Below, piece after piece: positions 1 to 50,823 of a stretch of 64,000 bases of DNA (position 1 is its first letter; the number at the start of each line of letters is the position of its first letter). Source of the stretch: Phoronis australis (lineage: Eukaryota; Animalia; Phoronida); the NCBI GenBank assembly GCA_002633005.1, contig NMRA01000882.1:28579-92578 (forward strand), written 5' to 3'. The notes under the pieces are model-generated. The model saw only the letters and a program-made list of their open reading frames with translations. It was not told the DNA's origin and did no database searches. A program made the position numbers and the translations under genes.

Positions 1-689
1 TTTTGGCCCATTTTCAGCATAGCAGAACCCAGTCGATATCAAAACCTTTGGTTTGTTCAGATATTGAATAATTTGCTGTGTTGCATAGGCTAACATATTC
101 TACAGTTCTTTTTAGTACATAGTGTGTCTTTAACCTTCTTTTCAGTGAGGGTTAAAAAACAAAGTTGATAAATTGCGTAACGAGTACCAGTTTTATAATG
201 AACCCTACCATTCCTCAATGATTAATCACTACTTCATCTAAGTGAATACAAAAGTGACTCAAATTGTTCCCAGTCGTATCAAAGCAGTTGCTTACTTAAT
301 AAAATGCATTTCTTTTCTGCTGTAGACATTTAAAAATTGTAATTTTTAAAATGGCCACACGTAACGCAAAAATGCAAGAAATTCATAGACAAAAACATGC
401 ATACATTTCTCAAGCATTGTCCGAGTTTTTATTTTCACAGCTATACAACTCTTTGCATGAGACTCGGTTGGCATTTGGTGAGTGTCCAACAATTTTATTT
501 TTTGTCGGTAACACAGTCTCGAATATGGGTCTTGATAGTGATTTACCCGAATGCATACATGCAAGCCTAGTACATGTCGGTGGCTTAGCACTTCATCTAG
601 ACCGAGGTCGAGTGCCTGGCATCGAGTGCCCTAAAATGAAAGCAGTTAGTTTGTTATTGGTAAAATTTGATAGTACACTTGCAAGGAAG

Positions 690-930
690 CGAGTCCTTTA
701 TCGTAACCCCACTTGTGTGCTTGGTCGAAGTGCGATTCCGTGAAATGTGTCGAACAAAGCGTGGCTCCCGACTGAATCGCATGTTCCAAAATGACATTCC
801 ACACTCTCGTACGGACGATAAACCGATGTCATTTCTGTTCAACTTTCACGTATTTTTGAAATATGAACATCCAGGGAAGTTCTCAGTCAAGTTGCAGTCA
901 CTACAGCCTCCACTAACACACCTTTTAATA
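690..930 (-). pseudogene. THAP zinc-finger relic (Kolobok-like family), frameshifted
   Basis: Minus-strand frames join as RCVSGGCSDC...FIFQKYVKVEQK*HRFIVRTRVWNVILEHAIQSGATLCSTHFTESHFDQAHKWGYDKGL, showing the THAP C-x4-C and LCSxHF motifs; homologous to the THAP at 54600-54850. Confidence 0.7.
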
Positions 931-1699
931 TCTACAAAGATAGTTCTCCGCCAACTTTCCTCCAAACTCAGTTCCGCACTGGTGAAAACTACAACGATTG
1001 ACTGTCTTCCAGTCACTACTTACATTTGCATGGACATGCACAACAACAATCATAGAAAAAATACAAAAATGTTTTGCTTGTTTCCTAGTAACAGCTATAA
1101 TAAAGGCTACTATATGCCTTCAGATGTATCAATAAAAATATTTTTGAGACACAGGGTCTTGGTTGAAACTTATTATGGACAGTGAAATAATGAAATTTAA
1201 TTAATATTGCCTGCAGAAGGTGGTGACCATGACACTCTGCACCAACCTATACTTTGAACTTTTTTGTACCACAAAGACAATAAGACCTCGACACCAGAAA
1301 GAAAAGTAAGAGCGATATTTTTACTATTCATGTAAAGTTGTCTTACTACACATACTGATATGCAACCCAGTTTTAATTCATTAACAACAGGGACATCAGC
1401 ACTCTTTTCAAGAAAAAGTTAGTCTACCAGTCTTAGACCCGACGTGAGGTGGTCTGTCACCATCGAAGGAAAATAAAATAGGTCAACTTCAATGAATTGA
1501 AGGTGAAAAGAGCCACGTTTCTGTTGCTAATTAGAGTCGTGGAAACTAAAGTAAAGTAGAAATGTTACTCAAATTGTAAAACCTAAGAATGATTTGTTTC
1601 ACTGAATTCCCCCCAAAAGGGATTTTTCGGATGCCGGTGTCTTTTTTAACGTTAAATCATTTATTCATATCACTTACGACGACGCGGCATCTCTACACC

Positions 1700-2760
1700 T
1701 CTGCACAATTTCCAAGGGAAACACCGGTGCCTTTACTTTAGTTAGTTAGCTCAAATCTCCAATATTCTTAATCGAGGTGCAATTTCTTGCTTGCTCCTGC
1801 ACCTACATGTACATGTACCAAACTTCCAGACATCAAGGTACTGTTTCATTATCTTTGGCAATACACACAGTTCCTCTTTCATAAAAAAGTGTGCTAATTG
1901 CACGTCACAGTGACTTTTGCCGTTTCCGTATATGTACATACAAATGTGTAGGCCCGTCCGTATGCACAGCAATACGTTCGTGAAAGATAAAACTTGCTCA
2001 AACATTTCAGATGTATATAGCAATTGCCATCTATCGTAAAGTCGTTTGTGTTTCACGATTTTAAAATTAAAGTCTAAAATTTTCCAACATTTCTGGACAG
2101 TACACAGATACATGTAGCTATTTTTCAATCCAAATGAAAGTTTGAATTACCGGATTTATTTAACTGATTTGAATGTTTCACATAACAATCTTCGATTTTC
2201 CAATCTAGCGTATTTTCGATGCATCAAAATAAGTTCCCTACCAATTTCCCTAGTTGTCGTTTTGTTGCTCAGGCACGTTCGTGCAACTTCCAGGCTGCCG
2301 AACAACGCGTTCAAAGAACTTGTGGCTACTGCAGTTACAGCAAATTTAGTTTTTGGTTCTTTAAGTAAACCATAAAATCTTAAAGTGGATAATTTTATGT
2401 TGAGTCCACGTAAATAAAGAAACGGGAGTGTCTTTACTAATGTTAGCCCAACTACTTCTCTTGTGTATAAGTGCCGGCGAAAAGTGGTTATGCCCTGACC
2501 AGGACATATTTAAAAAACATTTTTTTAAACAAGCATAAGACACACTGTGCGTATAGGGGTATCGAAATATTGCAGGGTTTATAGCTTCACCAAAGATTTC
2601 GCGGTGCTCAAACGAACGAAACCTTGTGTATGCAGTTTGTGGTCGACCTTAGTGCTCCACACTCTGTATAAAGGTTTGCGTTTAAAAGTCACCTGAGTGA
2701 TGCAAATTGTTTTCAAAACCGTGTGCTAAAGTTGTGGTCTCAACATCTGTAATGTTGACA
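1700..2760 (-). pseudogene. Degenerate MULE (Mutator-like) transposase, copy A
   Basis: Fragments such as RTGLHICMYIYGNGKSHCDVQL..MKEELCVLPKIMKQYL and the upstream P.LHLHG..AVATS.FNALFG block resemble animal MULE transposase core motifs; many stops and frameshifts; family call by eye. Confidence 0.45.
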
Positions 2761-3784
2761 AGGGACTTTGTGAGAATTGTTGTTGACGCTACATGTACAC
2801 GTACGACTCAATGTACGATCGATAGTGAAAACACTGAGGATCGGGATGTGCTTGTGCGGAGTGGCACATTATTAAGAAACTTAGGCTGTAACTGTATTGA
2901 CACAAAATAACAGTCTCAAATATATTTACTGCTCAATGAAACTGACGAAAACAGTGCTTGATAGTTTTGAAAACAGATTTCACCGTGCTCACAACGAAAA
3001 CACAATTCACACAAGGCATAAAAAATATGATGCTAGTTTTCAACCACATTGCCGAAGAAACTGATTGAATTATAACACAAAATGTAACCACTAAGACGGT
3101 TGGAATTATATCAGGTCATTCACTTAAGGTTATGAAGTGTAACACGAATAAATATTTTAATAACAAACGTTACTCAAAAGGCGATTGCTTGTTTCATATA
3201 TTTACCAAAGGAGTTTTATAACTTCCTTCTTCTCCAAAGAATACATTCATTCTAAATATGATGGGAAGTGTCATGTTCAACCACTCAAAATCTCACAATT
3301 TGAAACCCCCAAACTGCACTTCTCACTGTATTGTGGAAGTTCCAGCAAACTCGTCAAAATCACTACGATTCATTTTCCGTTTAAACATATAATAAATGTT
3401 TTGAATTATGACTTTGTCTCATCCTTTTCGAAAATAAGAAATCATTTGTTCATTCGTTTAGGTTTTTATGTTTTGTGGAGTGTACACGCTGTTTTTGACG
3501 CGCTGTGTCTTGAATAATGTCGTGGTACCCGAAATAAGATTGTCGTGTGAGGGGTGAACCAAACTTATTGGGTGGGTCCAGACTATAGTGTTTACGTAAT
3601 CTTTAATTTTGTGGTGAAGATCCACAAGACCACGCATTGTGATTTAGTCTTGTCACTTTTATCTAAATTTCAACCGTCGCATCAACATTTTTTGACACGG
3701 AAATTCACAAGTCGTGCAGTGTAGTACTTGATTATGATCAAACGATTGCAATTTCTAAAAAGACGATGAGATTTGACACTTTTA

Positions 3785-3925
3785 CATGGGCGGCGCAGCA
3801 CTAAAAAAAAGTAGGGGCAAAAGGGCCCAGACCCCTGTGGTGCACCGCAAATAGACCATGGGTGGCGCAACTTTGAAAAAGTGGGAGCTACAACACCCCA
3901 GCCACCCGTGGTGTGGCGACCGTGA
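3785..3925. mobile_element. Short GC-rich MITE-like insertion (also 14226-14365)
   Basis: CATGGGCGGCGCAGC...GTGTGGCGACCGTG imperfect inverted ends with an internal duplicated CATGGG.GGCGCA..AAAAAGT motif, in AT-rich context. Confidence 0.5.
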
Positions 3926-4381
3926 GATAAGTAGAGAATGGGAATAGCTATTGAAAAGGAGTGTAGGGAATATTTAGATAACCAAACATTCCATGCCGCC
4001 TGTTGGTTTGATCGCAAAAACAAGGAACTCTTTTATGTACTCTGTCAGGGTACATGTATATCGGATAGGTATATGCGTACACTCTAGATTATACAGGTCC
4101 ATATCGATAACTTGTGATCGATAGCTTTGGCTTGCAGCTAAATCTCAAGTCAAGTCAGGATATATCTGATACCGAGATGATATATCGAATTGGACCTAGT
4201 TTGCTATTACCGCAACATATTGTGATAGGACGCAAATTTGTGCGTAAACACGATTGACACGGAACAAGTTGAAACCATTTCGACACCTGCTTGAGAAGTA
4301 GACTGAGTTGCACTCCATCAGTAACTCTGGAGAAAGACAGTGATAACATACGTCAGAATTTGATTGGCACACTTATCTTAC

Positions 4382-4480
4382 CGTATTGGGAGCTGTGGCA
4401 TCGGCACCCTTTTTTAGAAGGAGTTCAACAACATCTAGCTTGCCATACATAGTCGCCATGTGCAGGGGCGTGTCGCCTTT
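4382..4480 (-). CDS. Ankyrin-repeat exon KGDTPLHMATMYGKLDVVELLLKKGADATAPNT
   Basis: 99 bp, open, TTGTAG acceptor and GTAAG donor, phase 0/0; canonical GxTPLH..A...G...VV.LLL..GAD. Confidence 0.9.
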
Positions 4481-5044
4481 CTACAACGAGCATTAAAAGC
4501 GACTGACAAACCATCAACATAATTACACCATTTCCATGTGTTTGGTGAACAACTCGTGTAAATGAAAACGAGGTTGACCTAATTAAAGTCAAAATGTCAA
4601 AGAATATTATCAAAACTAAAACTGAGTTCAACATGAAGCAGATATGATATCAAACATTATATGATTATTTTCATACACATTGTAAAAGCAAAAGGGAAAT
4701 ATTTTAGAAGATTGTAACAACATTTTGAAATCTCGTGCTCAAGATCGATAGGAAATAAAATATGATCATATTGTGGGAACCATGGTTTTGGTATCAACGC
4801 ACCTTTCCTTCTTTCCTAAACCTTAATAACGATATGTTATATGACTCAAATAATGAAAGCTACGTAAACCGTGAAAAATCAAATTCAGCAGTTCCCTTAA
4901 TGAAACCCAAATGTGTGTGTAAACACGAGTGATACGGAACAAGTTGAAACCATTTTGACACCTGCTTGAGAAGTAGAGCGAGTTGCAATCCAGAGAAAGA
5001 CACTAATGACAGACCTCGCAATTTGATTGACACTCTTATCTTAC

Positions 5045-5143
5045 CATATTAACAACCGTGGCATCGACGCCCTTTTCTAGAAGAAGTTCAACAACTGCTA
5101 GCTGGCCACGCCGAGACACTACGTGTAGGGGTGTGTCGCCTTC
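5045..5143 (-). CDS. Ankyrin-repeat exon EGDTPLHVVSRRGQLAVVELLLEKGVDATVVNM
   Basis: 99 bp, open, TTGTAG/GTAAG splice sites, phase 0/0. Confidence 0.9.
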
Positions 5144-5723
5144 CTACAACAAGCATTAAAAGTGACTGACAAACAATGAAAATAGTAAAACCAGTTCCAT
5201 TTGTTGAATGAAGAACTCGTGTAAATGAAACATGGTTGACCTAATTAAAGTCAAAGTGTCAAACAATATTATCAAAAATAAAACTGAGTTCAACATGAAG
5301 GAGATATGATATCAAACACTATATGATTATTTTCATCAACGTTTAAAAGCAAAAGGGAAATATTTTAGAAGATTGTAACAACAACATTTTTGAAATCTCG
5401 TGCTCAAGATTGATAGGAAATAAAATCTGATCATATTATGGGAGCCATGGTTTTGGTATCGACGCACCTTTCTTTCTTTCCTGAACCTTAATACCGATAT
5501 GTTATATATGACTCAAATAATGAAAGCTAAGTAAACGGTGAAAAATCAAATTCAGCAGTTCCCTTAATGAAACCCAAATGTGTGTGTAAACACGATTGAC
5601 ACGGAACAAGTTGAAACCATTTTGACACATGCTTGAGAAGTAGAGTGAGTTGCAATCCAACAGTAACTCTGGAGAAAGACAGTGATAACTTACTTTAGAA
5701 TTTGATTGGCCCACTTATCTTAC

Positions 5724-5822
5724 CGTATTGAAAGCTGTGGCATCGGCACTCTTTTTTAGAAGGAGTTCAACAACATCTAGCTCGCCACGAATACACGCGA
5801 TGTGCAGGGGTGTTGTGCCACA
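5724..5822 (-). CDS. Ankyrin-repeat exon CGTTPLHIACIRGELDVVELLLKKSADATAFNT
   Basis: 99 bp, open, TTGTAG/GTAAG splice sites, phase 0/0. Confidence 0.9.
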
Positions 5823-7573
5823 CTACAACAAGCATTAAAACGACTGACAAACCATAAACATAATTACACCATTTCCATGTGTTTGGTGAACAACTCGTGT
5901 AAATGAAAGCGAGGTTGACCTAATTAAAGTCAAAATGTCAAAGAAAATTTTCAAAACTAAAACTGAGTTCAACATGAAGCAGATATGATATCAAACATTA
6001 TATGATTATTTTCATATATTGTAAAAGCAAAAGGGAAATATTTTAGAAGATTGTAACAACATTTTTGAAATCTCGTGCTCAAGATTGATAGGAAATATAA
6101 TCTGATCATATTATGGGAACCATGGTTTTGGTATCAAAACACCTTTCTTTCTTTCCTGAACCTTAATAACGATATGTTATATATGACTCAAATAATGAAA
6201 GCGAAGTTAACGGTGAAAAATCAAATTCAGCAGTTCCCTTAATGAAACCCTATATGTACATTAACAGGGTTGATATCCACAGTTCTTAGACATTCTTCAT
6301 AATACGGAAAATGGACAACATTCAAAACCCAAAAAACAAGCGTTGTGCATGGTGAGTCAAACAGACGCGGTACAGGATGGAAATATCAAGGCACTAACAC
6401 TTTTAAAACAGTGTTATGTAATACAATCACGTGACTCGTGTTCATGTCACAGACAGGCGGGCGGTTGTTTGGAAACTTTCGTCACGGTGTACCGTAACAT
6501 AGGCGTCAATCCTCAGTACCTGAAGCACCATCAAGCACATTTTTTTCGATTATGTGCCAAACAAAAACCACATAGTTACCCATAGGCGTTCTGGTGACAA
6601 CTGATGGACCGACGGTTGACCAGATTGATGCTGCCATGGGTTTACAATATCGATTGTTGTCGCGTCAGAACGTTGATTTGCATCTTAGCAATACATGTAC
6701 CTGGATCAAATATCAAGCAAAGCTCGGTCTATACCCCGCCAACTAAATTCGGTCAACTTTTTGTCGCAGTGAGAATAGCCATCAGGAATCAATCTCTTGC
6801 GTTTCAGTAATACACAACATGCACTCAGATTTCAACTGAAATTTATTCGACCATCTGAGCATACACTGTATGCAATATATTTATTGAACACATTGCAATG
6901 AACATTACTCCTAAAGATGAACAACCAGAACGAACATTTGTAAGAGCAGAAACATGTAAACCATTGCAGATCAGTGGACTGCGACGCGGAATCAGGCACT
7001 TGCTTCTATATCTGCTGTTTGGAAAATACGGACATTTTCCAACTGAGGTGGGTCACATATACACGCATGCCTGGTGTTACAGTTGCTAGCGCGGGTAGAT
7101 ATCCTGTGTATAAGTAGATGCGTTTTTTTTTTGTGTTTCGTAACCATTTAACTCAACGCAAGGTTGTAAATACGCTCAGATACAGTGCGATGAATATATA
7201 AGAAACCCCAAGACACATTGTCCAGTTCTTAGATGTTTTAAGTTTGTATAAGGAAGCCAATAAAATCTTTACTGACATCACATTCATTGTCTCAACTGTA
7301 CAAAATGCTTCGGATCTTTCTGACAATAGTCTGTTCCCACGACAATCTTAGTGTCTTTACATACAAGCAAGCCCCCTTAATCACCACCGACATGGCCATG
7401 TGCATTGTCAATGTTATTTTGTGGCCTGCAATGGAAATGTATCAGTAAAAGAACCGTTATACCTCCATTTGAAGAGCACACCAAAATTGAAATGTTAAAC
7501 AAATTTATGTAATTTTATGATTTTTGACATGACGATGTGCCGTAGCACAGTTTCGCTGACTTGCGTATTTAAT

Positions 7574-7630
7574 CTTATTGAGAAGCGTGGCATCAGCACC
7601 ACTCCAAGCTGCTCTCTTTGAGTTGCCAGC
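7574..7630 (-). pseudogene. Eroded ankyrin exon with internal deletion (AGNSKRAAWSG/ADATLLNK)
   Basis: CCCGTAG acceptor followed by the N- and C-terminal parts of an ankyrin repeat fused at G; GADAT..N matches the array exons; no GT at the expected donor position (ATTAAA). Confidence 0.5.
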
Positions 7631-8469
7631 CTACGGGAAGTATAAAAAGCGGTCACTTACACAAGCACTGCCTCAGCAACTTTTGTATTGCCATGATCAA
7701 CAGGATCGCATAAAAGTAAAAGAAGAGCGGTGCAGCAAGAATCAGGGAAAATTTTCCATTCATGTGTTTCATTTATATATGTATCCCTTATGCACTCCTT
7801 TGTAAGTGCACGTATACATGTATTTCCTTCGGATTAGTGCATGGTTGTGCGTGTTTATGTATTTTGGTCTAGGCTTTGACGTAAACGCGGGCTGATACCG
7901 TCAAGTGAAATGCCAGTCACTCTGGCTAACCTGTGGACGGAAATCATTAAACACGACCAAACTTTTAAAGAAACTACATTACAAGGAGAGAGTACAACAC
8001 TAGAATACAGTTCGCTATTTTTGCAATTCACGTGTGTTAGATCGTCACAGTCAAAACTCAGGTAAAAACCTTTAATGCAAAACCGGCGATTAATCAAAAT
8101 TGATGATAAAATTGACATACAATGTATTTGACGCTAGTTATTAAAATATTTTTAATGAAAGATTTTCAGCATAATCATAAAAGCTAATACATTTGTGCCC
8201 GGTGGCAACACGTGCATCTCTGAATACTTTCAATTCAATAAATGCAAGTGGTGCTGACAACTTTTGTTAATTAAAGTGTATGCAAACGTAATAAAAAGCA
8301 TTGTGCCAGAAACCATTGATGCATCTCCATTGTAAATCGAAGTAGATGTTTAGGAAATGTCAGTCACTCAGCAAAACTCGATTACACTGCATAACATGAA
8401 TTTTCTTAGTTTCCTGCCAAATGACGTAAAGGGTGGAAGACGGCATTTGGTTACAAGACAATCAATTGC

Positions 8470-8810
8470 AATGAAAGAATACATCAAATTGGAAGATGAG
8501 GATTTTGAGTGAGAACTGGACAAGTCTTATGCAGACACAGAGGAGAGTGGAGACAAGCATTAAACCGAAGTACCATAAGAATCAGAAAATGAATTTGACT
8601 TCCAGTCAGCGAGCTTTAATCGGCTTTGGGGCCGGCTCGGCCAACTTGCAGCAGAAATAATGCAGTCATATGTGAGCCCCAATAAACTGAACCAAGGAAT
8701 GGTCAACATTAACAAAACAGACACTCAGTAATCACTGGCGAGGGTTACAGTAAACCTGTGTCACTTGTGGTTGTCATGACAGAATGAGAACGGCGAGGCT
8801 AAAAACAATC
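8470..8810 (+). pseudogene. Kolobok second-ORF (KolX / P2X7-C-terminal-like) relic
   Basis: MKEYIKLEDEDFE*ELDKSY..ESENEFDF parallels 54336 MTESREFESNDDYEQELNEYY..ESENKFNV; followed by MQSY.EP and CVTCGCHDRMRTA, resembling the PYxFEP and WCxCGxCxxMxT motifs. Confidence 0.4.
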
Positions 8811-9049
8811 AGCCAAATCACTATCACGGTCCATATTCAGTGGCAACTTTCGATGAAGTGTGAAGGTTATCAAATAACTGTAAAATCTGGGTTGTTCTAA
8901 AGTACCGTCTTCCAAGGTTTGTAATCTATAATATTTTTGCACAAAAACCACCGAATAAAATTCCATAACCTAATGCATCACAGTTGTATAAAAGGGTACG
9001 TACACTACAACTTCTGGTCACAGCTCATTTCTATCATGCAACAATACAT

Positions 9050-9600
9050 GTACATAAGGTTGCGGTTAATTGAATACCTTCTTGATCAGATTGAGGAAGT
9101 ATCAGATATTAAAGTTGTTCAAGTTCTTCTAGACGGTGATACATTGCATATCTTAACACAGTATAATGAGAACTTCTTCTTTTGCAATATGATTCTTACA
9201 AAAAGGAAATGGCAAGTTGCTACTTTTTCAAAAACTTTATTGGTGGTCTTTGCCCAGTTTGTAATACATTCGTCAGTTGGTCAAAATAGTTTAGCAATGC
9301 TGGGCCCAGTGTTCAACTTGGGAACAGTAAAAAATAGTACAATCAACTTTAAATTTGACTGAGTTACAAATGTATGGGATGGTCTCGAGTTTTGTGCTGC
9401 ATCTACTAGTTTGTATGTTGCAAGTTGTCTTGAGAGGTAGAGAAAATTCCTCTGTAACATCAGTTGCCACGTGGCGTGTTTTGTAGGATGTTACTGGCTA
9501 AAACCTGTGTGTCATTTTATTACCAGCGAACTTGATAATGTCCATTGCTTTTTGTCATACTGGATGCATTTTGGAAATACCAGTATTCAGTTCATGAGAA
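9050..9600 (-). pseudogene. Possible MULE transposase C-terminal (SWIM-like) relic
   Basis: Frameshifted ..QKAMDIIK..YKLVDAAQNSRPSHTFVTQS/KFKVDCTIFYCSQVEHWAQHC resembles the pre-SWIM region; weak. Confidence 0.3.
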
Positions 9601-11159
9601 CAGCGGGTATGTAAAAATACTTGTGGGCAATACTTTATAGCAGAGGGGTTGAAGGTACGTACATGTACACTACACGGGTTTACGTACACTACACTTCAAC
9701 CACTTGTCAGGTTAATAAAAATTCCTTACAATATACTGAGAGTTCATTTACCAAATGTATTCAGAGAGAACAAATAAAAAGTACAGCATACACGTCCATT
9801 TCTGTCTGTCATTCTTTGAAAACAGGCACATGTTAAAATATAGGAGTAGTTGCACTACATAAATCCTAATATTTCACTCAAAACAAATGTATTTGTAAGT
9901 AACACCCTTTAACCTAGCTTTTTAATTGAGGAAGCTGCCTGTGACAAGTGTTGGTTACTTACCGTGTATTGTTTTTGCTTCATGGTATATGTTCACATCG
10001 GGGTACGTACAATACATGTCAATGACATGTCAGGTTTGTTACGAAATACTGATAAACTATTGATAGATAGCTGATTTACTAAGTCAATTCAAAGAGGAAA
10101 AATAAAAAGCACACATATCTGCCATACTTTGAAAATCAAAATAATGGGGTATGTAAGCTGCACAAATGCTAAAAATTCACTCAAAACAAATGTATTTGCA
10201 ATACACACCCATTCAACCTAACATTTGAAGGAAGGACACTGTGTATAACAAATGCTTCTCACTTACCAATTTTAATTTCATGGCATTTGTAAACATTGGG
10301 GTACGTACACACTTTTCTGCATAACATGGTAACCCAATGCTGTATGACCATTTATTTTTCTTTGGTGATAATAAGCACCATGTTGTTATTTAAAAGGCAA
10401 TAATTTTATTTGAAATGACCATTTGTGTTACTGAATTCCACATGGGGGTACGTACACTACATTCTTTTACTAGCTTTTTGGCCCATTTTCAGCATAGCAG
10501 AACCCATTCGATATCAAAACCTTTGGTTTGTTCAGATATTGAATAATTTGCTGTGTTGCATAGGCTAACATATTCTACAGTTCTTTTTAGTACATAGTGT
10601 GTCTTTAACCTTCTTTTCAGTGAGGGTTAAAAAACAAAGTTGATAAATTGCGTAACGAGTACCAGTTTTATAATGAACCCTACCATTCCTCAATGATTAA
10701 TCACTACTTCATCTAAGTGAAAACGAAAGTGACTCAAATTGTTCCCAGTCGTATCAAAGCAGTTGCTTACTTAATAAAATGCATTTCTTTTCTGCTGTAG
10801 ACAGTTAAAAATTGTATTTTTTAAAATGGCCACACGTAACGCAAAAATGCAAGAAATTCATAGACAAAAACATGCATACATTTCTCAAGCATTGTCCGAG
10901 TTTTTATTTTCACAGCTATACAACTCTTTGCATGAGACTCGGTTGGCATTTGGTGAGTGTCCAACAATCTTATTTTTTGTCGGTAACACAGTCTCGAATA
11001 TGGGTCTTGATAGTGATTTACCCGAATGCATACATGCAAGCCTAGTACATGTAGGTGACTTAGCACTTCATTTAGACCGGGGTCGAGTGCCTGACATCAA
11101 GTGTCCTGGAATGAAAGCAGTTAGTTTGTTATTGATAAAATTTGATAGTGCACTTGCAA

Positions 11160-11405
11160 GGAAGCGAGTCCTTTATCGTAACCCCGCTTTAGTGCTTGGT
11201 CGAAGTGCGATTCCTTGAAATGTGTCGTGCAAAGTATGGTTCCCAACTGAATCGCATGTTCCAAAATGACATTCCACACTCCCTTGCAGACGATAAACCG
11301 ATGTCATTTCTGTGCAACGTTCGCGTATTTTAGAAATATGAACATTCAGGGACGTTTTCAGTCAAGTTGTAGTTACTACAGCCTCCACAAACACACCTTT
11401 TAATG
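11160..11405 (-). pseudogene. THAP relic, copy B
   Basis: KRCVCGGCSNYN... followed by frameshifted ..VWNVILEHAIQLGTILCTTHF; paralog of 690-930. Confidence 0.65.
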
Positions 11406-12199
11406 TCTACAAAGATAGTTCTCTGCCAACTTTCCTCCAAACTCAGTTTTGCACTGGTGAAAATTACAACGACTAACTGTCTTCCAGCCACAACGTATAT
11501 GTACATGTACATGCACATCAACAATCATAGAAAAAATATGAAAATGTTTTTCTTGTTTCCTAGCCTCAGGTATAATAAAGGCTACTAAATCCCTTCAGAT
11601 GTATTAATAAAATTGTTTTTGCGACACAGGGTCTTGGTTGAAACTTATTATGGACAGTGAAATAATGAAATTTATCTTATATTGCCTGCAGAGGGTGGTG
11701 ACCATGACATTGTGCACCAATCTATACATGTACTTTGATTTAATTGTACAAAAAAGACAATAAGACCTCGACACCAGAAAGAAAAGTAAGAGCGATATTT
11801 TTACTATTCTTGTAAAGTTGTCTTACTACACATACTGATTTGCAACCCAAATTTAATTGATTGGCAACAGGGACATCAGCACTCTTTTCAAAAAAAAATT
11901 AGTCTACCAGTCTTAGACCCGATGTGAGGTGATCTGTCACCATCGAAGGAATATAAAATAGGTCAACTTCAATGAATTAAAGGTGAAAAGAGCCACGTTT
12001 CTGTTGCTAATTAGGGGCGTGGAAAATAAAGTAAAGTAGAAATGTTACTCAAAGTGTAAAACCTAAGAATGATTTGTTTCACAGAATTCCCCCCAAAAGG
12101 GATTTTTCGGATGCCGGTGTCTTTTTTAACGTTTCATCATTTATTCATATCACTTCCGATGACGCGGCATCTCTACACCTCTGCACAATTTCCAAGGAA

Positions 12200-13230
12200 A
12201 ACACCGGTGCATTTACTTCGTTTAGTTAGCCCAAATCTTTAATATTCTTAATCGAGGTGCAATTGCTTGCTTGCTCCTTCACCTATCAAACTTCCAGACA
12301 TCAAGGAACTGTTTCATTATCTTTGGCAATACACATAGTACTTCTTACATAAAAAGTGTGCTAATTGTACGTCACAGTGACTTTTGCCGTTTCCGTATAT
12401 GTACATTCAAATGTTTAGGCCGGTCCGCATGCACAGCAATACGTTCGTGAAAGATAAAACTTGCTCAAACATTTCAGATGTATATAGCAATTGCCATCTA
12501 TCGTAAAGTCGTTTTTTGTTACGGGATTTTAAAATTAAAGTCTAAATTTTTCCGACATTTCTGGACAGAACACAGATACATGTAGCTATTTTTCAATCCA
12601 AATGAAAGTCTGAATTATCGGATTTATTGAACTGATTTTGAATGTTTCAAATAACAATCTTCGATTTTCCAATCAAGCGTATTTTGGATGCATCAAGATA
12701 AGTTCCCTACCATTTTCCTTAGTTGCCGTTGAATTGCTCAGGCACGTTCGTGCAACTTCCAGGCTGCCGAACAACGCGTTAAAAGCACTTGTGGCTACTG
12801 CAGTTGCAGCAAATTTAGTTTTTGGCTCTTTAAGAAAACCATGAAAACATAAAATGGATAATTTTATGTCGAATCCATGTAAATGAAGAAACGGTGATAT
12901 TTTTACCGATGTTGGCCCACCTAATTCACTTGTGTATAAGTGCCGGCGAAACAACGTGGTTATGCCCTGACCAGGACATATTTAAAACACACTTTTCAAA
13001 CATGTATAAGACACACTGTGGGTAGAGGGGTATCGAAACATTGCAGGGTACATTGCTTCACCAAAGATGTCGCGGTGCTCAAACGAACGCAACCTTGTGT
13101 ATGCAGTTGGTGGTCGACCTTAGTGCTTCACATATTGTATAAAGGTTTGCGTTTTGATGTCACATGAGTGATGCAAATTGTTTCAAAACCGTGTGTTCAA
13201 GTTGTGGTCTCAACATCAGTAATGTTGACA
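12200..13230 (-). pseudogene. Degenerate MULE transposase, copy B
   Basis: ITTLFRRHLYTSELGGPTSVKISPFLHLHG..AVATSAFNALFGSLEVARTC..KEN and IGEG...L..EY.RFGL mirror the order of MULE core motifs (TT.YRH, P.FLHG, AFGTD/E.AL, C..H..N, GEY.L..EY). Confidence 0.5.
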
Positions 13231-14979
13231 AGCGACTTTGTACGTACGACTCAATGTACGTTCCATAGTGAAAACACTGAGAATCGAGATGTGCACATGA
13301 AGAGTGGCACTCTCCTGGACTCTCGTGACATTATTACGTGACTTAGGCCGTAACTGTGCATTGACACGAAATAACAGTCTCAAAGATATTTACTGCTCAA
13401 TGAATAAAGTGCTTGATAGTTTTGAGTCGAGATTTCACCGTACTCACAACGAAAACACCCAAGGCATCAAAAATATGATGTTAGTTCTCAACTACATTGC
13501 CGAAGAAACTGATTGAATTATAATACAAAAATTAATGTAACCACTTAGACGGTTGTCAATATCTCAGGTCATTCATTTGGGGCTATAAAGTGTAACGCGA
13601 ATAAATAATTTAATAACAAACATTACTCAAAAGGCGATTGCCTGTTTCACATATTTACCAAAGGAGTTTTGTAACTTCCACCTTCTCCACAGAATACATT
13701 CATTGTAAATATGATTGGAAGTGTCATGTTCAAGAACTCAAAATCTCACAATTTGAAACCCCCAAACTGCACTTCTCACTGTATTGTTGAAGTTGCAGCA
13801 AACTCGTCAAAATCACCACGATTCATTTTCCATTTAAACATATAATAAATGTTTTGAATTATTATCATCATTTTCGAAAATAAGAAATCTTTTGTTCATT
13901 AATTTACGTTTTTGTGTTTTGTATAGTGCACACGATGTTTTTGTCGCGCTGCGTCTTGAATAATGTCGTGGTACCCGAAATAAGATTGTCCTATGAGGGG
14001 TGAACCAAACTTATTGGGTGGTTCCAGACTATAGTGTTTAGGTAATCTTTACTTTTGTGGTGAAGATCCGCAAGACCACGCATTGTGATTTAGTCTTGTC
14101 ACTTTCCAATTGTCAACCGTCGCATCAACATTTTTTAGACGAAAATTCACAACTCATACAGTGCAGTACTTGATTATGATCAAACAATTTCAATTTCTAA
14201 AAAGACATGAGATTCTACACTTTCAAATGGGCGGCGCAGCACTGAAAAAAGTGGGGGCAAAAGGGCCCCAGACCCCTGTGGTGCATCGCAAATAGACCAT
14301 GGGTGGCGCATCTTTGAAAAAGTGGGTGCTGCAGCACCCCGGCTACCCATGGTGCGGCGACCGTGAGAGATGTTGTGAATGGGAATAGCCATTGAAAAGG
14401 AATATAGGAATATTTAGATAATCAAGCAATCCCAATTTTAGTTAATAACCAAAAAAACAAGATTGGTTGACCCTGATGATGACATCTCTTTTGTTTGAGA
14501 ATTATTTTGTATTTCAGCATGGAAGGTTTGCACTTAACCAATTTGCCACCAGGTGAGTGTTCTACTCAAAAACACGTCCAATACATTAGGCCTATGTCTA
14601 CCTTCTAGCCTTCGTGGCATTTTATTTGAAACACAGTTGGGGCAAACATCTGACTACCCTTGTTGTAAAAACGGAAAATTTGCTATAATAATGAATTTCC
14701 AAAAGCTTTCCCAACAATCAAATTTTAAAGACACTGAACTGTTAAATTTGTTCTTTCAGAGGACACATTGGCCAAGGGTCTATAATGTTCACATCTACGT
14801 CACACACAGTTGTATTGGAAGGTGACAAACGTTTCCATTCCGGTCAACGTCATGATAACCCGTTTATTACGCAGCCCACATCTAATATTTTCCCAACAAC
14901 TTTTACCATCAGAAATATTTAGTCTTTGAATCATTGTTTCGAGGGATGTCGATAATTTTGTCATAGGGTAAATGTTTAC

Positions 14980-15033
14980 TTCCCGCAATAAATATTCTAG
15001 CAAACTTATGGCCTGTGTAGGAGTGTTTCCATC
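14980..15033 (-). CDS. Partial or capping ankyrin-like exon DGNTPTQAISLLEYLLRE (3' extent uncertain; frame stays open to 14800)
   Basis: CTGCAG acceptor then phase-0 DGNTP; a possible GTAAAC donor follows. Confidence 0.45.
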
Positions 15034-15572
15034 CTGCAGTAAGAGAACAAAATTTCGGTCAGCAATACACATAGCGACTCGGGTGGATCAACAGTGCGTT
15101 ACGTTTTACATGTATATCTACAGTTCAAAACTTCACTATCACCTGCTTACTTATGAAGTGGTTGACTCAACAGAGCACGACTACATGTGCACTGGACATT
15201 TAAACTCGAGCGAGATCTCTTCAATGCCGGTCTGACTTGGTGTAGTCACGTGATTGAAACGATGACTCTAAATATCACAACTCGGTGTTATGTATTACAA
15301 AAGAGAGACATTCATTTCGTGTAGTTAGCTCTATGAAAATGCAAGTAAATACCAACCCATTGTACAACTCCAGTTTTTAATTGTTTAAAGTCACGTGCAC
15401 GTCACGTCACGCGCGGTGGAGTGCAACAAGAAATGTCAACGTTAACAACAAAATCACATATTGGTTTTTAATTGATTTAAACATCGAATAATTCAGCCTA
15501 GCCACGCGTTGTACGTTCATGTTCGTTGTATAACCACTTGTTCAACCAAACGACCAGTTTGTCATTAATTAC

Positions 15573-15671
15573 CTGATAACGGAAATTCACGTTGGCCCCG
15601 TGTTGGATGAGACACTGTACGACGGCTGTATGACCCTCCTCTGCTGCCTTGCGCAGCGGTGTAAAGTCAAT
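15573..15671 (-). CDS. Ankyrin-repeat exon IDFTPLRKAAEEGHTAVVQCLIQHGANVNFRYQ
   Basis: 99 bp, open, TAG acceptor and GTAAT donor, phase 0/0. Confidence 0.9.
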
Positions 15672-15992
15672 CTACATGTATGTAATATATAATGGAGATG
15701 TGTGAATGGACGGGGGAATGTGAACTTGCAAAGTGACATAAATGAATCATTACTGACCCCTCTAAGACGCTATAATACTTGTAATGATGTCTTAGTTTTA
15801 GAACAAACAACACAGCGTGTTCAGTGTTTCCAGTCTTTGAATGCACAAGCATGTAAAGCAGACGATATTTAATTTGACATTGTTTAGCGACATTAAATTG
15901 TGAATAATATAAACAAAATGTTACTTTATAGTTTCAATATTCTTTTATTTAAGCAACTAGTTCAACCAAACAACCTGCGTGTCACTACTTAC

Positions 15993-16091
15993 CTCATCAC
16001 GTACATCTACACTGGCCTTGTTGTCCAATAATACCTCCACTGTCTGTGTATGACCACCCTGTGCTGCCATGGACAGCGGTGTCTCGCCATC
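15993..16091 (-). CDS. Ankyrin-repeat exon DGETPLSMAAQGGHTQTVEVLLDNKASVDVRDE
   Basis: 99 bp, open, CATAG acceptor and GTAAGT donor, phase 0/0. Confidence 0.9.
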
Positions 16092-16628
16092 CTATGTAAT
16101 ATATAATGGAGATGTGTGAATGGACAATCAACGTTTAGAGGTAATTAACATACACGGGGGAATTTGAACTTGTAAAGTGACATAAATAAAACATTACGGA
16201 CTCCTCTAAGACACTACAATACTTGTAATGAATTGTTACAGGTGATTTTAAAACGTTGCACTAACAACAGAACATGCTGTGGACGTCAATGCAAGAAATT
16301 ACTCAGCGCCTCCATAACTTCTCAGCGAAACCTCTATGTTGTGTTTATAAACATCTTTACTGGCTTCTTTTTTATTATAAAGTTGTTGAATGGACAAAAT
16401 GAATCACGGTGAAGCTGACAAATACGTTGTCGACGAGATACAAACCTCATTGCTTCTTAAGACACAAACACTGGGTACAGATTGAGAAATACATGTGGAA
16501 ATCACGAGCAATAAAATGGGTCTTTACACAGCATATTTTGTTAAACTTCTGATAGCTTACAACTTTTGTAACAAAGATAATTCTGTCTTACATGTATTTT
16601 TTAAATCTTCCCAAATAGTTTCTATTAC

Positions 16629-16727
16629 CCGATTTCGCACGTCTACATGGGCACCATACTCCAGCAGCAGGCTCACCACCTCCGTTTTGCCCCGCTTTGC
16701 TGCCTCGTGTAGTGCTGTCTGGAGGTC
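16629..16727 (-). CDS. Ankyrin-repeat exon DLQTALHEAAKRGKTEVVSLLLEYGAHVDVRNR
   Basis: 99 bp, open, TTTCTGCAG acceptor and GTAAT donor; visible within ORF 16557-16841. Confidence 0.9.
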
Positions 16728-16893
16728 CTGCAGAAACAATGAACAAGTTACAACAAGCTTCTCAATAATTAATTTTGCCGTGAATCTTAATTGCTCATCA
16801 CGGAAACGTTGAAATAACACATTTGCACATGAACTTTCCAAATCTACTCTTTGATTGCCGAGTAATATATCACTCTCGGGTGGGATGGATCAC

Positions 16894-17033
16894 CTTTTTA
16901 TGAAGAAGGTTGCGTTGCCCTTGTACTTTGTTTGCTAGTGTCAATAGTGCAACCAGTAATTCTCTGAGCAAATACGCGATATGTTTATTAAAAATATTGA
17001 CACTTTTATCAAAGTCCTTTAGACTGGTTGTAC
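16894..17033 (-). CDS. Candidate upstream exon of the ankyrin gene (TTSLKDFDKSVNIFNKHIAYLLRELLVALLTLANKVQGQRNLLHKK)
   Basis: TTAG acceptor, AAG|GTGA donor, open for 140 bp, ends in phase 0 matching the first ankyrin exon. Confidence 0.4.
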
Positions 17034-17890
17034 CTAAGACGGGCTATCGCTCTCATTCAACGTGCCGTTTATATTCACAGTTAAATATCATACATGTAGT
17101 TAAGAGACCAATTTCAGAAAAGAAAACAATTGAATTCGTTTTTATTTCTTAACTAGCTAAATGGGAGGAAATTTAAATATCTGGAAACTCATTTTGACAC
17201 AAAATATGATGTAAGAGGCAACAACGTTGAAGCCAAGTGTACCAAAGCTGCGACTATATACATAGCTAAAAATTTTGTAGCCATCCGGTTCGTACTCGTT
17301 AGCAGATCTATTCAAAACCAATCCTTGTCATCCTTCTTGTGAAGATTTCTGTACAGAAAATCAACTAATCATGCAGTTCCAATTTCGACGCAAATCCAAG
17401 CTCACGTAGGCTTCTAAAACTTGAAACGACGAGGCAGTGGTCTGGACAGGCGAAGCGTTGCGTTTGAAAAGAGCTTTGCCAGCCAGTTTTCACGTGTACA
17501 CGCGATAAATTGATACATTTGCCTGTTCTTGAATATATTTCAGGGGGCATTTCCTCATCACAAGCCACCAATTAAAGACACCATATCCAATCTTAAAAAA
17601 GTGGCTGCAATTCGAATTTGTTGACATTCGTTTGACTCCTTTTACGCGCAGGTGTTTAAAATGGTGAGTTTCGACATTGATTCCAGTTTTATTCTGTAAC
17701 AGAAAGTTAGAGACGATTTACCTCATTCAACATTTCGTTTTACATGGATGGTAAAGAGGCCACATTCTCATTCTACTTACATGTAACAGCAACGTTGTAT
17801 GAATGTTTAAAAGCAAAATCTCGAATTCGTTCCATGCCTCAGAAGAAGCGACACGCATGACGGGGTCACGTGACGTTTCGAGGCTGACAT

Positions 17891-20556
17891 CAAGGAGTGT
17901 ACGAGAGTTCACTCCGCTTTTTTACCATTCGCCGCAATGGTTACTGGTCGAAACACTAGCGCTCCAAGCGGCGAATAATCAACACTTAGTTTGGCGCGCA
18001 GTCCGAACAATGTAAACGCTCAAAAATTCATACTTTAATGACATTCAACGAGCAATAAAATTACTGTGATTGAAAATGGTTAGAATACATAAACTAACAT
18101 CCACTTACAATAGAATGAGAAAGAAAATGTGTATTTTATTCAATATTAAAATTCATCATGGTTTTGTTTCATGTTTGAGTTCTTAACACGGCAATTATCG
18201 TTCCTTATAGCAGTTCATACCTCCACGGACTGCATAATTTGAATGATTGCCCCTGGGGGTTTAGAGGGGAATTCCCCCCAGGTGCCAGCTAAGGGGGTAC
18301 CTGGCAAAAACCGGCAGGTAGGCACCAAATGGGGGGTTGACCCCTCCCAGGGGGTGTTACATGGGAGGAGTGCTAAACGGGTAAAAACCAATGGGTAAGT
18401 ATACCACATGGGTGTGGAGCCCCTCCCATCGTCACACATTTTGGTTGCTCCCCTGACCCGGCCATTGACAAACATGTTGCTCCCAGCTCACTGCCGGTTT
18501 CATCTCCACCCAACAATATCGCATGTGTTCTCTATTCAATGCATGAGTCTACTGGCAATGCAGACAATTGTTTTGTGCAGTGGGTGTTACACAAGTGAGA
18601 AGAAGAAAGCAAGGCAATTCATCACTACCACAAAATCGTAATGCAATTTTAGAACATTCCATTATTTCTTAGACATTCCAGTATAGGGCTCAATCCCACT
18701 CTCCCAATCACCAACAGTTACAAGTCACTTGCTAATCTGTAGAATAGCTCACAACTTACAAAATGAAGTAACATTGAGTATATCATCACCCATAACTAGT
18801 CAAAGTTCAAAATATCATGACAAAAATTTAAGAGGTACTAAACAGCAATCAAAATATTCACTACCCACATAACTTCATACAAAATTGAATTAAAAAGACT
18901 TGGATGATAAAACCAAAATTTTATTTTATATGCCCACTGTTCCTATTAGTAAATATTTCAGGTAAGTTAAAGCCAGACCACAATATCATATCTGATACCT
19001 AGCCTTAAATTAATCACAATCTCCAAAAACATACAAAACAGGCAACACATACAGCAACCAATACAACAAGAAAATCTGACCAACCTTGTCACTTTCTATT
19101 AATTCACTAGCAAACAACAACACTTTTCGCCAAAGAAATGCGTTCTAAATAAAGCTGAAAACTAATTTACTCACAGAGGTCTTTGTCATCGAGAATGATA
19201 CGGATAGCTTGGGTTTAACAAAATTTCCGCCTACCACTCAGACTCTGAATGATCCATCAGTTTCACTTTGGCTCTCTCAAAATCACAGGCTAACCATTCA
19301 TAAAATGTTTCAATCTGATCAACCTTAGTAAAATACGAAAACCAGATTTTGCGGACTAATTGTCCTTTCTACACGTGATGTTCCAGTACTTGCTTTGTGA
19401 GACGATAATCAGAAATGCAAAAAAGCCTATTCCAGAGCTGTAATATAATTTCTGGAGAGCTTTTTGACCCTGACATCTTCATTGTTGGTGGATTGGGGAC
19501 ATCAAATATTGTTTGGGCACTGCAGTCAATACCAGCTTGTTCTTCATTCATGAACGTGGACTCTTCGAAGTGATGAGAACATAACTTGCGGTTCTTGGAC
19601 AAATAGGCTGCATCTCTATTCATAAGGTCAGCTCCCAGCGCTTGCACCTGAACAGAAATCAAAGACTGAGAGACTCAGGAACAAAGCTCATACTCACTAT
19701 GTTCACAGAAGACTGGTAGCCTACACTGAAGTACACTGCACTACAGAATTCCTGTCGCACTATGATTGTGATAGAGACAAATGCGTTTTGGTGTCAACTG
19801 AAAAAACTCGGACTCAAATGTTGATCCACGGATATTTTAACAGGGCCGCGCCCCCGCATCATTGACACATAGAATTAAGTTTTCAATGACGCACTGCTTA
19901 ACTTAATTGGTCCAACTGGCACATTAAAACTATGTTCGGATTTTTCACCTTTTCACCGAGAACCACAGATTCGCTAACTTGACTCATGACAGACTTAGTG
20001 GCCCTGTGGCTGTGATTGTGCCATGGCTGTCATGTCACCAGTCATATTACTCATGGCCATCATGGGCATGGGTATGTTTTCCTAAAATTGTCCCTGCTAT
20101 CGTACGGGTGACATTTGAATTTGGAATTGATGGACTGCAAGTATTCAAAAAGCTGACGATCACATCGTACGTTCATCATAGTCCATCCGCCGGCAGCCCG
20201 GTTGTACAGTAGGCATAGCCTACACTGCAGACAACAGAACAGTGTCAGCGGCAACGGGACTGTGATCGACTTGTCTAGACACAACCGTGAACAGAACACA
20301 AAAATTGAAAGCCAATGTATCATTTTATTGAATAACAGATAACCCTTACCTTTCGGGATCCTTAGGAAACCTAAAAAATGACACGTCTGGAGTTTTCGTG
20401 GATGAATTCATGAAATTTATCGCACTGCAAAATGCGTCCTTCCCCATTGTTTTGGCGCTTCCTGGTTGAGAGTTGCTTGTTCACCACTTGGCGGCGCTAG
20501 TAGTAGCGGTAACAGCGATCTCGCAAGTGAACTCTCCTATACTACTACACTCCTTG
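17891..20556 (-). mobile_element. Non-autonomous P-superfamily DNA transposon
   Basis: TIRs CAAGGAGTGTA..GAGAGTTCACT (17891) and AGTGAACTCTC..TACACTCCTTG (20556); exact 7-bp TSD CTGACAT on both sides; internal THAP. Confidence 0.85.
19480..20447 (-). pseudogene. Two-exon THAP domain of the P-like transposase (exons 20350-20447 and ~19480-19647), frameshifted
   Basis: MGKDAFCSAINFMNSSTKTPDVSFFRFPKDPER|CKRW..ADLMNRDAAYLSKNRKLCSHHFEESTFM..TIFDVPNPP; GTAAGG donor and TTCAG acceptor. Confidence 0.8.
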
Positions 20557-28944: not shown

Positions 28945-29870
28945 AACACACTATCCGGTAAATCACAATCAAGGTCCATATTCGAGAGTCGACTCTGTTA
29001 CCAATGTCAACTGAACCTCAAATGCAAAGAGTTATTTAGTTGCGCAAGTTAAAAATAATCATCAAACTTGGATAGTGTTTGGGAAACTTATGCATGTTTT
29101 TGTCAGTGAATTTCGTTTATATTTAGCTTACGAGTGGCCATTTTAAAAAGTTAAATTTCCAACTGTCAACAGTGGAAAATAAAGTAAGCATTTGTTTTGA
29201 CATGACTGCAAATAACTCGATTCACATTCAGAATCACTTAGATGAAGTTGTGCTCAATCATTGGGATATGGTGGGGTTCATCATAAAACAGACACTAGTC
29301 AGGAGATTGTAAATTCTGTGTTGCTAATCCTCATCTACTGTAAAGAAGGCTATAGAGAACTGCAGAATATGTTACTTAGGCAACACAACAAACAATTCAA
29401 TATCTAAACAAACCATTTAAAACTTGGATATTGACTAGGTTCTGCTATGTTGAGAAGGAGCCGAAAATGTAGGGTAGATACACTGAATTCAATAACAAAA
29501 ACGATGATTGCAAATGAAATTATTGCATTTTTAATAACAAAATGGTGCTTATTATCATCAAAGAAAAGTAAATGCCCCTACAACATTATGTTACCATATG
29601 ATGCAGAAACAGTGATGTAGTGTACCGTGTACATACCCCTTTTTATAGTGTACGTACCCCTTTTTGTAGTGTACATGCCCCCATGTTTACAAAAACCATG
29701 AAATTAAAATATTACTTGGTAACTGAGCAACATTCGTCAAAGAAATGTTATTTAAAACGAGTGTTTATCACAAATATATTTGTTTTGAATCAGATATTAG
29801 CGTTTGTGTAGTGTACGCACCACTATATTTTAAGATGTGCCTATTTTCAAAGAATGCACATTATGATGTG
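28945..29870. repeat. Inverted, more diverged copy of 9800-11035 (and of 1-560)
   Basis: GTGGCCATTTTAAAAA (~29135), CACTTAGATGAAGT (~29235) and GTGTACGTACCCC (~29648) are reverse complements of motifs at 10820, 10705 and 10445. Confidence 0.85.
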
Positions 29871-30699
29871 CTATGTTTACTTTAAGTCTGAATAGATTTT
29901 GTTAGTTAACTAACTCTCAGTAGATTCTTGGTATTTAATCACAAACCTGACATTCGTTTGTGCAAATAATTTACTGTTCATAAGATGAACACAGTGCATT
30001 TATCCCAATGTCCAAGGGATACCATTCTGCCCACACTGCCCTAGGCCTTACTCATTGTAAAAGAAAACAGTTGGGATATCACCCTAGTACAGCCCTTTTG
30101 TATAGCTCACAGTTGCCACGGATCTTTACACTCCTGAATAAGCCTCACAGTGTTTTTCTTGGCTTGCTGGGGTTAACAAAAGGTGTTCAGTGACAGAGCT
30201 ACAGGTATTTGAAAAAGTTGACCTAGTCAGTGTGGTCTTGTTTACAGCATACCAGATTATAGGCACTAGATTTTAGAAGTTTAGGTTCCACTATTGTGGC
30301 ATACACCCATGCTTAAATATTTCTTACTCTCGTACGTTTTTAAACTGCAGCCTGGCAGTATGTTTAAGAGATGATTTAGAGGGATGAATAGTCCGGGACT
30401 ACATTTCCCCTAGTTGCCACTCTTATAACTCACCACACCAATTAAACACCCAAGCGTTGGCATCCAAATAAAAATTTTGCAAAAATGGGAGAAAAGAAAA
30501 AAATTCCAGTGATCAGTATGTGAAATGAATAGGGTGGGGGAAGACTTTTAGGCAGTAGAGGAACAGGGTGGTATGGGTGCTTGGCCTAACAGCAATGGAC
30601 GCTTTTTCAGTCGGTGCTACAGCCACTGACTACTACCATAAGCGTAGATAGTGTTCACTGTCTAAAATGATGCATGTATCCATACTTGCAGACAGGCAG

Positions 30700-48423: not shown

Positions 48424-48830
48424 AATGCACTACATGTAACTAGTGAATGGCTATACAGACAATGCATTAGATATAAGAGGTGAATGGCTATACAGACAAT
48501 GCACTAGATTTAACCGGTGAATGGTTATACAGACAATGCACTAGATAAAACCAGTGAATGGTTATACAGACAATGCACTAGATTTAACCGCTGAATGGTT
48601 ATACAGACAATGCACTAGATATAACCGGTGAATGGTTATACAGACAATGCACTAGATATAACAGGTGAATGGTTATACAGACGATGCACTCGATATAACC
48701 AGTGAATGGCTATACAGACAATGCAGTACTTATACCAGTGAATGGCTGTACTGACAATGCACTACATCTATGCAGTGAATGGCAAACAGAAAATGCACTA
48801 CATTTAACCAGTGAATGTCAAAAACAGACA
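48424..48830. repeat. 37-bp minisatellite, ~11 copies
   Basis: GTGAATGGTTATACAGACAATGCACTAGATATAACC(A/G) units start at 48443, 48480, 48517, 48554 and onward. Confidence 0.95.
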
Positions 48831-48871
48831 AACTCCACGGGAAGTGATCGCGAAAGTTTACTCGAGGTTAA

Positions 48872-50712: not shown

Positions 50713-50823
50713 TCAAGAACTTTCTATATTTTTTGACATCACCACTCTCCTTCCTGTCACGTCGCTCGAGTCGTGGAACTCGTAACATTCCTTCCCACAG
50801 ACATCGTAAGCAGTTTTTCCTTT
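50713..50823 (-). pseudogene. Possible ankyrin C-cap exon (KGKTAYDV...)
   Basis: TTTTACAG acceptor then phase-0 KGKTAYDV, typical of the GKTALDxA motif ending ankyrin arrays; stop at 50713. Confidence 0.3.

Follow-up and report, generated by a model that had tools for sequence, protein, structure and literature searches.

Ankyrin sensors that diversify are already known from fungi, and the shuffling of exons that each encode a single repeat is known from leucine-rich repeat (LRR) and tetratricopeptide repeat (TPR) genes of brown algae. Exon shuffling in the brown-algal ROCO (LRR) and NB-ARC-TPR genes is accompanied by positive selection on the ligand face, and their products are candidate immune receptors (Zambounis, 2012, PMC3341825; Teng, 2024, PMC11378527). 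Fungal NOD-like receptors (NLR) carry ankyrin domains with high internal conservation, the repeats of which evolve in concert and are under selection at sites of the inner helix and the hairpin; in metazoans such repeats are rare (0.8%) (Dyrka, 2014, PMC4986451). Other points of comparison are the designed ankyrin repeat proteins (DARPins) and related libraries (PMC3308923; PMC8229355) and the Argiope MaSp2 silk genes with their repeated exon-intron units, the near-identical introns of which were proposed to aid recombination (PMC9779670); general background is available in PMC5100051. The subject of this report is an array of ankyrin exon cassettes in Phoronis australis (Phoronida), located in a stretch of 64,000 nucleotides (assembly GCA_002633005.1, contig NMRA01000882.1, positions 28,579 to 92,578), which is called the window and has a GC content of ~38% and two N gaps. 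In our estimate there is a probability of roughly 60% that the cassettes recombine via their shared introns, that diversifying selection acts on the binding face of the encoded repeats, and that the product is an intracellular binder of variable non-self proteins.

Similarly to the brown-algal genes, the array has one repeat per exon of equal length and phase, and inactivated repeat exons are found in the introns (two clear ones, which derive from one decay event that was later duplicated, and two weak ones); the likeness to brown-algal exon shuffling put forward in a preliminary description of this DNA is thus supported. Where positive selection on the ligand face was reported for the algal genes, the array displays an excess of binding-codon divergence over the intron among three phased copies. 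Unlike the algal genes, it consists of ankyrin rather than LRR or TPR exons, belongs to an animal and has whole intron-exon units duplicated and homogenised, and no ROC-COR or NB-ARC domain was found in the window, off which the gene runs. In fungal NLRs the ankyrin repeats are likewise in concerted evolution, but the array repeats are separate exons, the homogenised part is the intron, and no NACHT or NB-ARC domain was seen in the window. The criterion for the fungal highly conserved class (HiC-ANK) is more than 85% repeat identity over at least 100 residues; the array repeats share 19-24 of 33 residues pairwise (58-73% protein identity) and fall short of it. Because of this lower identity, and since no signalling domain was found, the array is filed with neither the fungal nor the brown-algal class.

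In common with DARPins, the array has a constant scaffold and variation at positions 2, 3, 5, 10, 13, 14 and 33, and some transcripts have a cap-like exon as their last; a DARPin was also the top match of the exon profile in the PDB, and most of the 60 matches listed were DARPins. The differences are that the locus is natural and intron-containing instead of an artificial consensus design, and that it varies also at positions 12, 16 and 18. In MaSp2 the exons are homogenised too, whereas in the array the binding codons escape homogenisation. No paper on this combination in an animal was found by full-text searching of one open-access library, in which most subscription papers are absent. What the array adds is the exon-cassette format with RNA support. 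An animal locus that joins both known principles, and in which homogenised introns likely act as handles for recombination, would, if true, represent an added route by which animals without antibodies diversify their binders, and naturally selected ankyrin faces could inform the design of DARPin libraries.

Anatomy of the array

Self-comparison of the window revealed three head-to-tail units of ~670 bp, designated U3, U2 and U1 (Table 1). On the minus strand each unit contains an AG, 99 nt open in phase 0 and then GTAAG, and the 33-residue repeats encoded by the three exons, as well as those of all three exons further upstream (A1 to A3), score above the curated Pfam cut-off for Ank (PF00023; 21.1 bits). 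This agrees with the preliminary description, which had proposed three such units with one 99-bp phase-0 ankyrin exon each. Indeed, all six live exons in the locus are 99 nt long, in phase 0 and flanked by AG and GT; those of the array sit in open reading frames (ORFs) of 35 aa, and in the U3 exon Ser replaces the usual Gly27. Residues are numbered by the usual ankyrin convention, with TPLH at positions 6-9, and the register was checked against DARPin chains; this register, together with published positions, defines what is called the binding face below.

Four DNA sequencing runs of one sample contain 25-36% of the array words, and three raw RNA runs bear the same species label. Reads from four of the eight listed runs (DNA run X1 and RNA runs X5, X6 and X7) were mapped onto 5576-20000 and, at 80% likeness, onto 4270-4590. 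They bear on whether the array could be an artefact, with haplotypes or paralogs stitched head to tail in an assembly that does have N gaps and a cap-like exon on the wrong side of the array. A contig from X1 (depth 25) joins 6250 back to 5579 and hence spans a unit-unit junction, RNA reads join like exons directly, and the summed DNA depth on the unit is ~5x that of non-repeat bins (317.6 against a median of 59.9 in 11 hand-picked low-depth bins of 30). An artefact is therefore extremely improbable, and the junction contig and the RNA joints argue for a real tandem array, as opposed to a chimera of haplotypes. The summed contig depth was rejected as a measure of copy number, the ratio resting on the 11 hand-picked bins.

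The exons of the upstream cluster are identical to those of the array at 42-51 of 99 bases. The 4-kb segment that follows the cluster has a second copy following the array, and the 3' end of the gene is presumed to lie beyond the latter, outside the window. Each of the two segments contains a decayed array-type exon with an 11-nt deletion.

Divergence of exons and introns

A recount of U1 against U3 gave the same exon figures as those first reported: 17 of 99 bases differ, with one synonymous codon and nine residue changes, at positions 3, 5, 10, 12, 13, 14, 16, 27 and 33, while position 2 is changed in U2. The intron divergence of ~4% reported along with them stands for the acceptor side (18/425) but not for the donor side (12/152), and the whole intron comes to 30/577 (5.2%), which is still significantly below the exon (Fisher p=1.1e-4). 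For the binding face we used the codons of positions 2, 3, 5, 13, 14 and 33, as given in the preliminary description; these are reportedly the positions randomised in the original DARPin library. In these six codons 11/18 bases differ between U1 and U3, 12/18 between U3 and U2, and 9/18 between U2 and U1, while the intron up to 100 columns away from the exon differs at 11/199, 29/186 and 28/187 positions, respectively (5.5%, 15.6% and 15.0%). The binding codons are thus more diverged than the local intron in all three pairs (Fisher p=2e-8, 8e-6 and 1e-3), and for U1 and U3 the excess over the intron rate has a binomial p=2e-10. The other 27 codons, which we call the scaffold, differ at 6/81, 15/81 and 15/81 bases and are indistinguishable from the local intron rate in every pair (p=0.47-0.59). 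Eleven of the 17 base changes between U1 and U3 fall in the six binding codons (permutation p=4e-4). Variation is enriched there, not confined there, positions 12, 16, 18 and 27 varying as well.

These positions may simply be the most tolerant ones in any ankyrin repeat, in which case ordinary young exon duplicates under relaxed constraint might vary at them without any selection for change. In a set of 694 generic repeats, drawn from 108 of 152 retrieved proteins, the eight positions of highest entropy were 2, 3, 5, 10, 13, 14, 17 and 33, largely the same as the most variable positions described for natural ankyrin repeats (2, 3, 5, 13, 14, 17, 32 and 33; PMC1261162). Dead exons in the locus and the missing Gly27 of U3 would also fit a loss of constraint. 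Relaxation, however, cannot exceed the neutral rate, and the binding codons differ at 50-67% of their bases against 5-16% for the intron; in addition, the three exons retain their frame and splice sites, and the exon class is spliced. Relaxed constraint is thus largely refuted and, as an explanation, highly improbable. A binding face under diversifying selection accounts better for codons that diverge faster than their neutral surroundings.

The distal intron is about equally close among all three units (4.8-6.2%), and in this part the introns are as homogeneous as first proposed. This does not extend to the neighbourhood of the U2 exon: the exon with its flanks (100 columns) is 15-16% divergent versus 5-6% farther away, and the contrast between the proximal block and the distal intron is significant (p=8e-5 and 1e-3). 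The U2 exon and its flanks thus have the appearance of an older block within a homogenised distal intron, which is the pattern that would be expected from exchange with breakpoints in the distal intron. Such a block may also have been imported, and this leads to another possible source of the exon differences, namely that older paralogous exons or pseudo-exons donate short conversion tracts, which bring multi-base changes into the exon's first half, and that purifying selection preserves the scaffold, with no selection on particular sites. Five codons carry two or three changes between U1 and U3 (p=0.035 versus scattered changes), the first five unique sites of U3 are consecutive, U2 visibly contains an imported or older block, and donor exon classes and dead exons do exist. 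Copied tracts, on the other hand, should bring along silent and scaffold changes, but only one of the 24 codons with the same residue in U1 and U3 differs and the scaffold diverges at the intron rate; even within the old block of U2 the binding codons are 3-4x more diverged than the flanks. Copying of templates without site selection is accordingly judged unlikely, and diversifying selection on the binding face remains our preferred explanation of the exon differences.

The array is not the only part of the locus with this signature. It is repeated by the pair A2 and A3, the exons of which differ at 40/99 bases as compared with 12/119, plus indels, for the acceptor-side intron (p=2e-7).

Transcription, splicing and variants of the exon class

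The preliminary description had called for RNA evidence of exon use, and this is now available from the reads, which cover the exon class on the sense strand and show exon-to-exon splicing in two runs. The RNA runs hold 11-13 million records each (~35 million in total), from which 23, 9 and 33 reads in the three runs map to 4270-4590. Their depth is restricted to 4380-4480, save at most 1 in some flank bins, and all of them are in the sense orientation for a minus-strand gene. The bin of the U3 exon has reads from the opposite strand too (depth 1.4-2.1 versus 0.5-3.7 sense). Splice joints leading back by exactly 99 bases, with 2 reads in X5 and 5+4 reads in X7, show that like ankyrin exons are spliced to each other, and both ends and starts of U2-like exons occur among the loose RNA ends. 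In four X6 reads an A2-type exon is joined at its end to an array-like exon, which suggests that the upstream cluster and the array form one gene. Several different sequences are seen next to array-like exons in RNA; in these short reads paralogs or alleles are not separable from isoforms. At 4451, 4 of 15 X5 reads have a one-base gap within the exon, which is either an artefact of aligning a codon changed at several bases or the mark of a transcribed copy with a frameshift.

The upstream exons are transcribed from the minus strand as well, with spliced neighbours that differ from those in the window; the expressed neighbours of A2 and A3 begin with residues unlike those encoded there. RNA joints from 16041 back to 15995 (9 reads in X5, 10 in X6) suggest that other alleles or paralogs carry the A2 exon type in tandem. 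Another joint, seen in 53 X7 reads on the strand of the gene, skips 447 bases of intronic sequence at 15788-16236. At 14908-15033 (minus strand) an ankyrin-exon-like start follows an AG acceptor and the motif is then lost; this region has little RNA cover and is possibly a degenerate or a cap exon. The sequence from 15033 onward was considered as a seventh ankyrin exon and rejected, as it has no Pfam match and little RNA.

The transcripts point to a cap-like exon elsewhere. Eleven loose ends that follow an array-type exon in X7 gave a consensus (agreement 0.75) for the start of this exon, and its copy in the window lies upstream of the array. Because this order is wrong, the exon was rejected as part of the gene copy that contains the array; it likely belongs to a paralog, or else the scaffold order is in error around the gap at 52145-52803.

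Sequence variants extend the comparison beyond the three units. Of the 40 variants considered here the exon contains 34; taken as single changes, 30 of these are non-silent, and 20 are on the seven codons 2, 3, 5, 10, 13, 14 and 33. A held-out check used ten letters that DNA contigs carry but that none of the three exons of the window has: they fall in codons 10, 13, 14, 33 and 16, none is silent as a single change, and they are concentrated on the binding codons (hypergeometric p=0.004 for the seven-codon set and 0.03 for the six-codon set). Further residues are therefore found at the same codons.

Candidate mechanism and other features of the window

The proposed mechanism starts from in-frame ankyrin cassettes; unequal crossover or gene conversion in the near-identical introns would duplicate them, exchange them and remove them. 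We infer that recombination within the shared intron drives this process because neither gain nor loss of a 99-nt exon in phase 0 shifts the reading frame, and the same recombination would homogenise the intron. Diversifying selection would drive the residues of the concave face, and selection rather than tract copying is the putative cause of the multi-base codon swaps. A single gene would span the upstream cluster and the array, and its product would putatively act inside the cell, binding variable proteins of foreign or rival origin; a ligand of the defence type, and with it an immune role, is a conjecture that follows from this scheme.

Several observations weigh against this reading. The whole-exon proportions of nonsynonymous (pN) and synonymous (pS) differences between U1 and U3 are 0.21/0.06, which is not significant (p=0.06-0.22), and in both U2 pairs pN (0.23-0.26) is lower than pS (0.29-0.31). 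The whole-exon ratio of nonsynonymous to synonymous rates was consequently rejected as proof of selection; the signal lies in the binding-face codons, in which 11/18 bases differ. The rate comparisons are based on only three phased copies. Among 693 similar generic pairs (35 proteins), 38% of the differences are on the same six positions; U1 and U3 have 5/9 residue changes there, an average reached by only one of the 35 control proteins. The position pattern is thus partly generic and was rejected as proof in its own right, and since generic repeats share it, the rate relative to the intron, not the location, is the informative signal. Selection or conversion on a recognition surface, the central suggestion of the preliminary description, is accordingly supported in part, by binding codons that are faster than neutral in all three pairs, the positions of the changes being weak evidence. 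Of the nine U1/U3 changes, three (12, 16 and 27) are off the randomised face. The library of PMC3308923 randomises positions 2, 3, 5, 10, 13 and 14, and position 33 is taken there to lie outside the binding surface.

Expression is low (65 reads in ~35 million records). None of the reads and contigs that cover 4453 agrees with U1, likeness is below 90% in all nine X6 reads, and nine reads (4 X6, 5 X7) leave U1 at 4422 for a second half that was not found live in the window. It is therefore for the exon class or family, and not for the U1 copy, that expression is demonstrated. Some of the RNA variants come from related exon classes, the RNA and DNA variants are unphased, and the 40 variants are those of a table with 64 rows. 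Finally, no effector or signalling domain (ROC-COR, NB-ARC or NACHT) was detected in a Pfam scan of all 324 N-free minus-strand ORFs of at least 42 aa, in which shorter exons are missed; the only matches were three ankyrin ORFs and one EPTP ORF.

The same cassettes and the same mechanism could serve a target other than a pathogen, such as self/non-self, gamete or symbiont recognition or the countering of a selfish genetic element. The sequence signature would presumably not separate these conflicts, and fungal receptors with variable repeats include allorecognition genes (PMC13449251). Neither a signal peptide nor a membrane anchor or a partner was seen for this gene, the ends of which lie outside the resolved sequence, and a target of this kind seems rather improbable to us. 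Beyond the preferred scheme of recombining cassettes and a selected, defence-type binding face, a bolder version can be formulated, in which a germline library of live and dead one-repeat exons gives rise, through intron recombination and combinatorial splicing and perhaps somatically, to stand-alone ankyrin-only binders of a few repeats and a cap exon with no signalling domain. This would amount to a natural DARPin repertoire, an ankyrin counterpart of the cassettes of Dscam and of the lamprey variable lymphocyte receptors (VLR), and we regard it as doubtful.

Searches for relatives returned mainly generic ankyrin proteins. Two of 11 candidates in a protein search with A2 were homologs, both generic fungal ankyrin proteins, and no close relative was among them. 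The best 150 of 199,425 matches to a profile of the three array exons were long generic arrays, identical at no more than 20/33 residues to any of the exons, and the unit pattern was absent from two metagenome scans.

Table 1. Features of the ankyrin cassette locus, in window coordinates.
Feature	Position	Strand	Basis or remark
Unit U3 (intron-exon-intron cassette)	5572..6250	-	Self-comparison; joint 6250 to 5579 in DNA-run contig
Unit U2	4905..5575	-	Self-comparison; exon and ~100 nt each side apparently an older block
Unit U1	4230..4908	-	Self-comparison
U3 ankyrin exon, 99 nt, phase 0, AG..GT	5724..5822	-	Pfam Ank 36.1 bits
U2 ankyrin exon, 99 nt, phase 0	5045..5143	-	Pfam Ank 32.4 bits
U1 ankyrin exon, 99 nt, phase 0	4382..4480	-	Pfam Ank 41.2 bits
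Upstream ankyrin exon A1, 99 nt, phase 0	16629..16727	-	AG..GT and Pfam; putatively same gene as array
Upstream ankyrin exon A2, 99 nt, phase 0	15993..16091	-	Pfam and RNA joint
Upstream ankyrin exon A3, 99 nt, phase 0	15573..15671	-	Pfam; older cassette duplicate of A2
4-kb intronic segment after upstream exon cluster	10476..14432		90% identical to 1-3992
Second 4-kb segment copy, after array, cut by window start	1..3992		Self-comparison
Decayed array-type ankyrin pseudo-exon, 11-nt deletion	11860..11943	-	E 5e-5; inside 4-kb duplicate
Decayed array-type ankyrin pseudo-exon, 11-nt deletion, no AG acceptor	1379..1463	-	E 1.5e-7; other 4-kb copy
Possible exon remnant (weak)	7566..7600	-	11.0 bits; best of 10 shuffled windows 8.3
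Possible exon remnant (weak)	14106..14154	-	10.1 bits; best of 10 shuffled windows 8.3
Cap-like exon, 36 codons to stop	50713..50823	-	29/30 letters to X7 consensus; sole match in window; 0/100 shuffles

The rest of the window contains several features of other kinds. The EPTP ORF (47055-47459, minus strand) has an EPTP/EAR repeat (Pfam PF03736, E 5.8e-7) and is probably an exon of another gene; 0/34 and 0/4 candidates were homologs in two protein searches. A dispersed repeat is present at 29003-29953, where the portion of 9810-10950 and 1-475 that is rich in repeats has an inverted copy of ~70% identity. Two 460-nt copies located 2.4 kb apart (58254-58711 and 60634-61104) are 80% identical, with no Pfam match in their minus-strand ORFs. 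The element at 48868-50201 has long terminal inverted repeats of ~290 nt (91%) around a THAP-domain fragment (49058-49363, plus strand) and is likely, judging from this organization, a non-autonomous DNA transposon. It is adjoined by a 37-bp minisatellite of 10.7 copies at 48424-48817.

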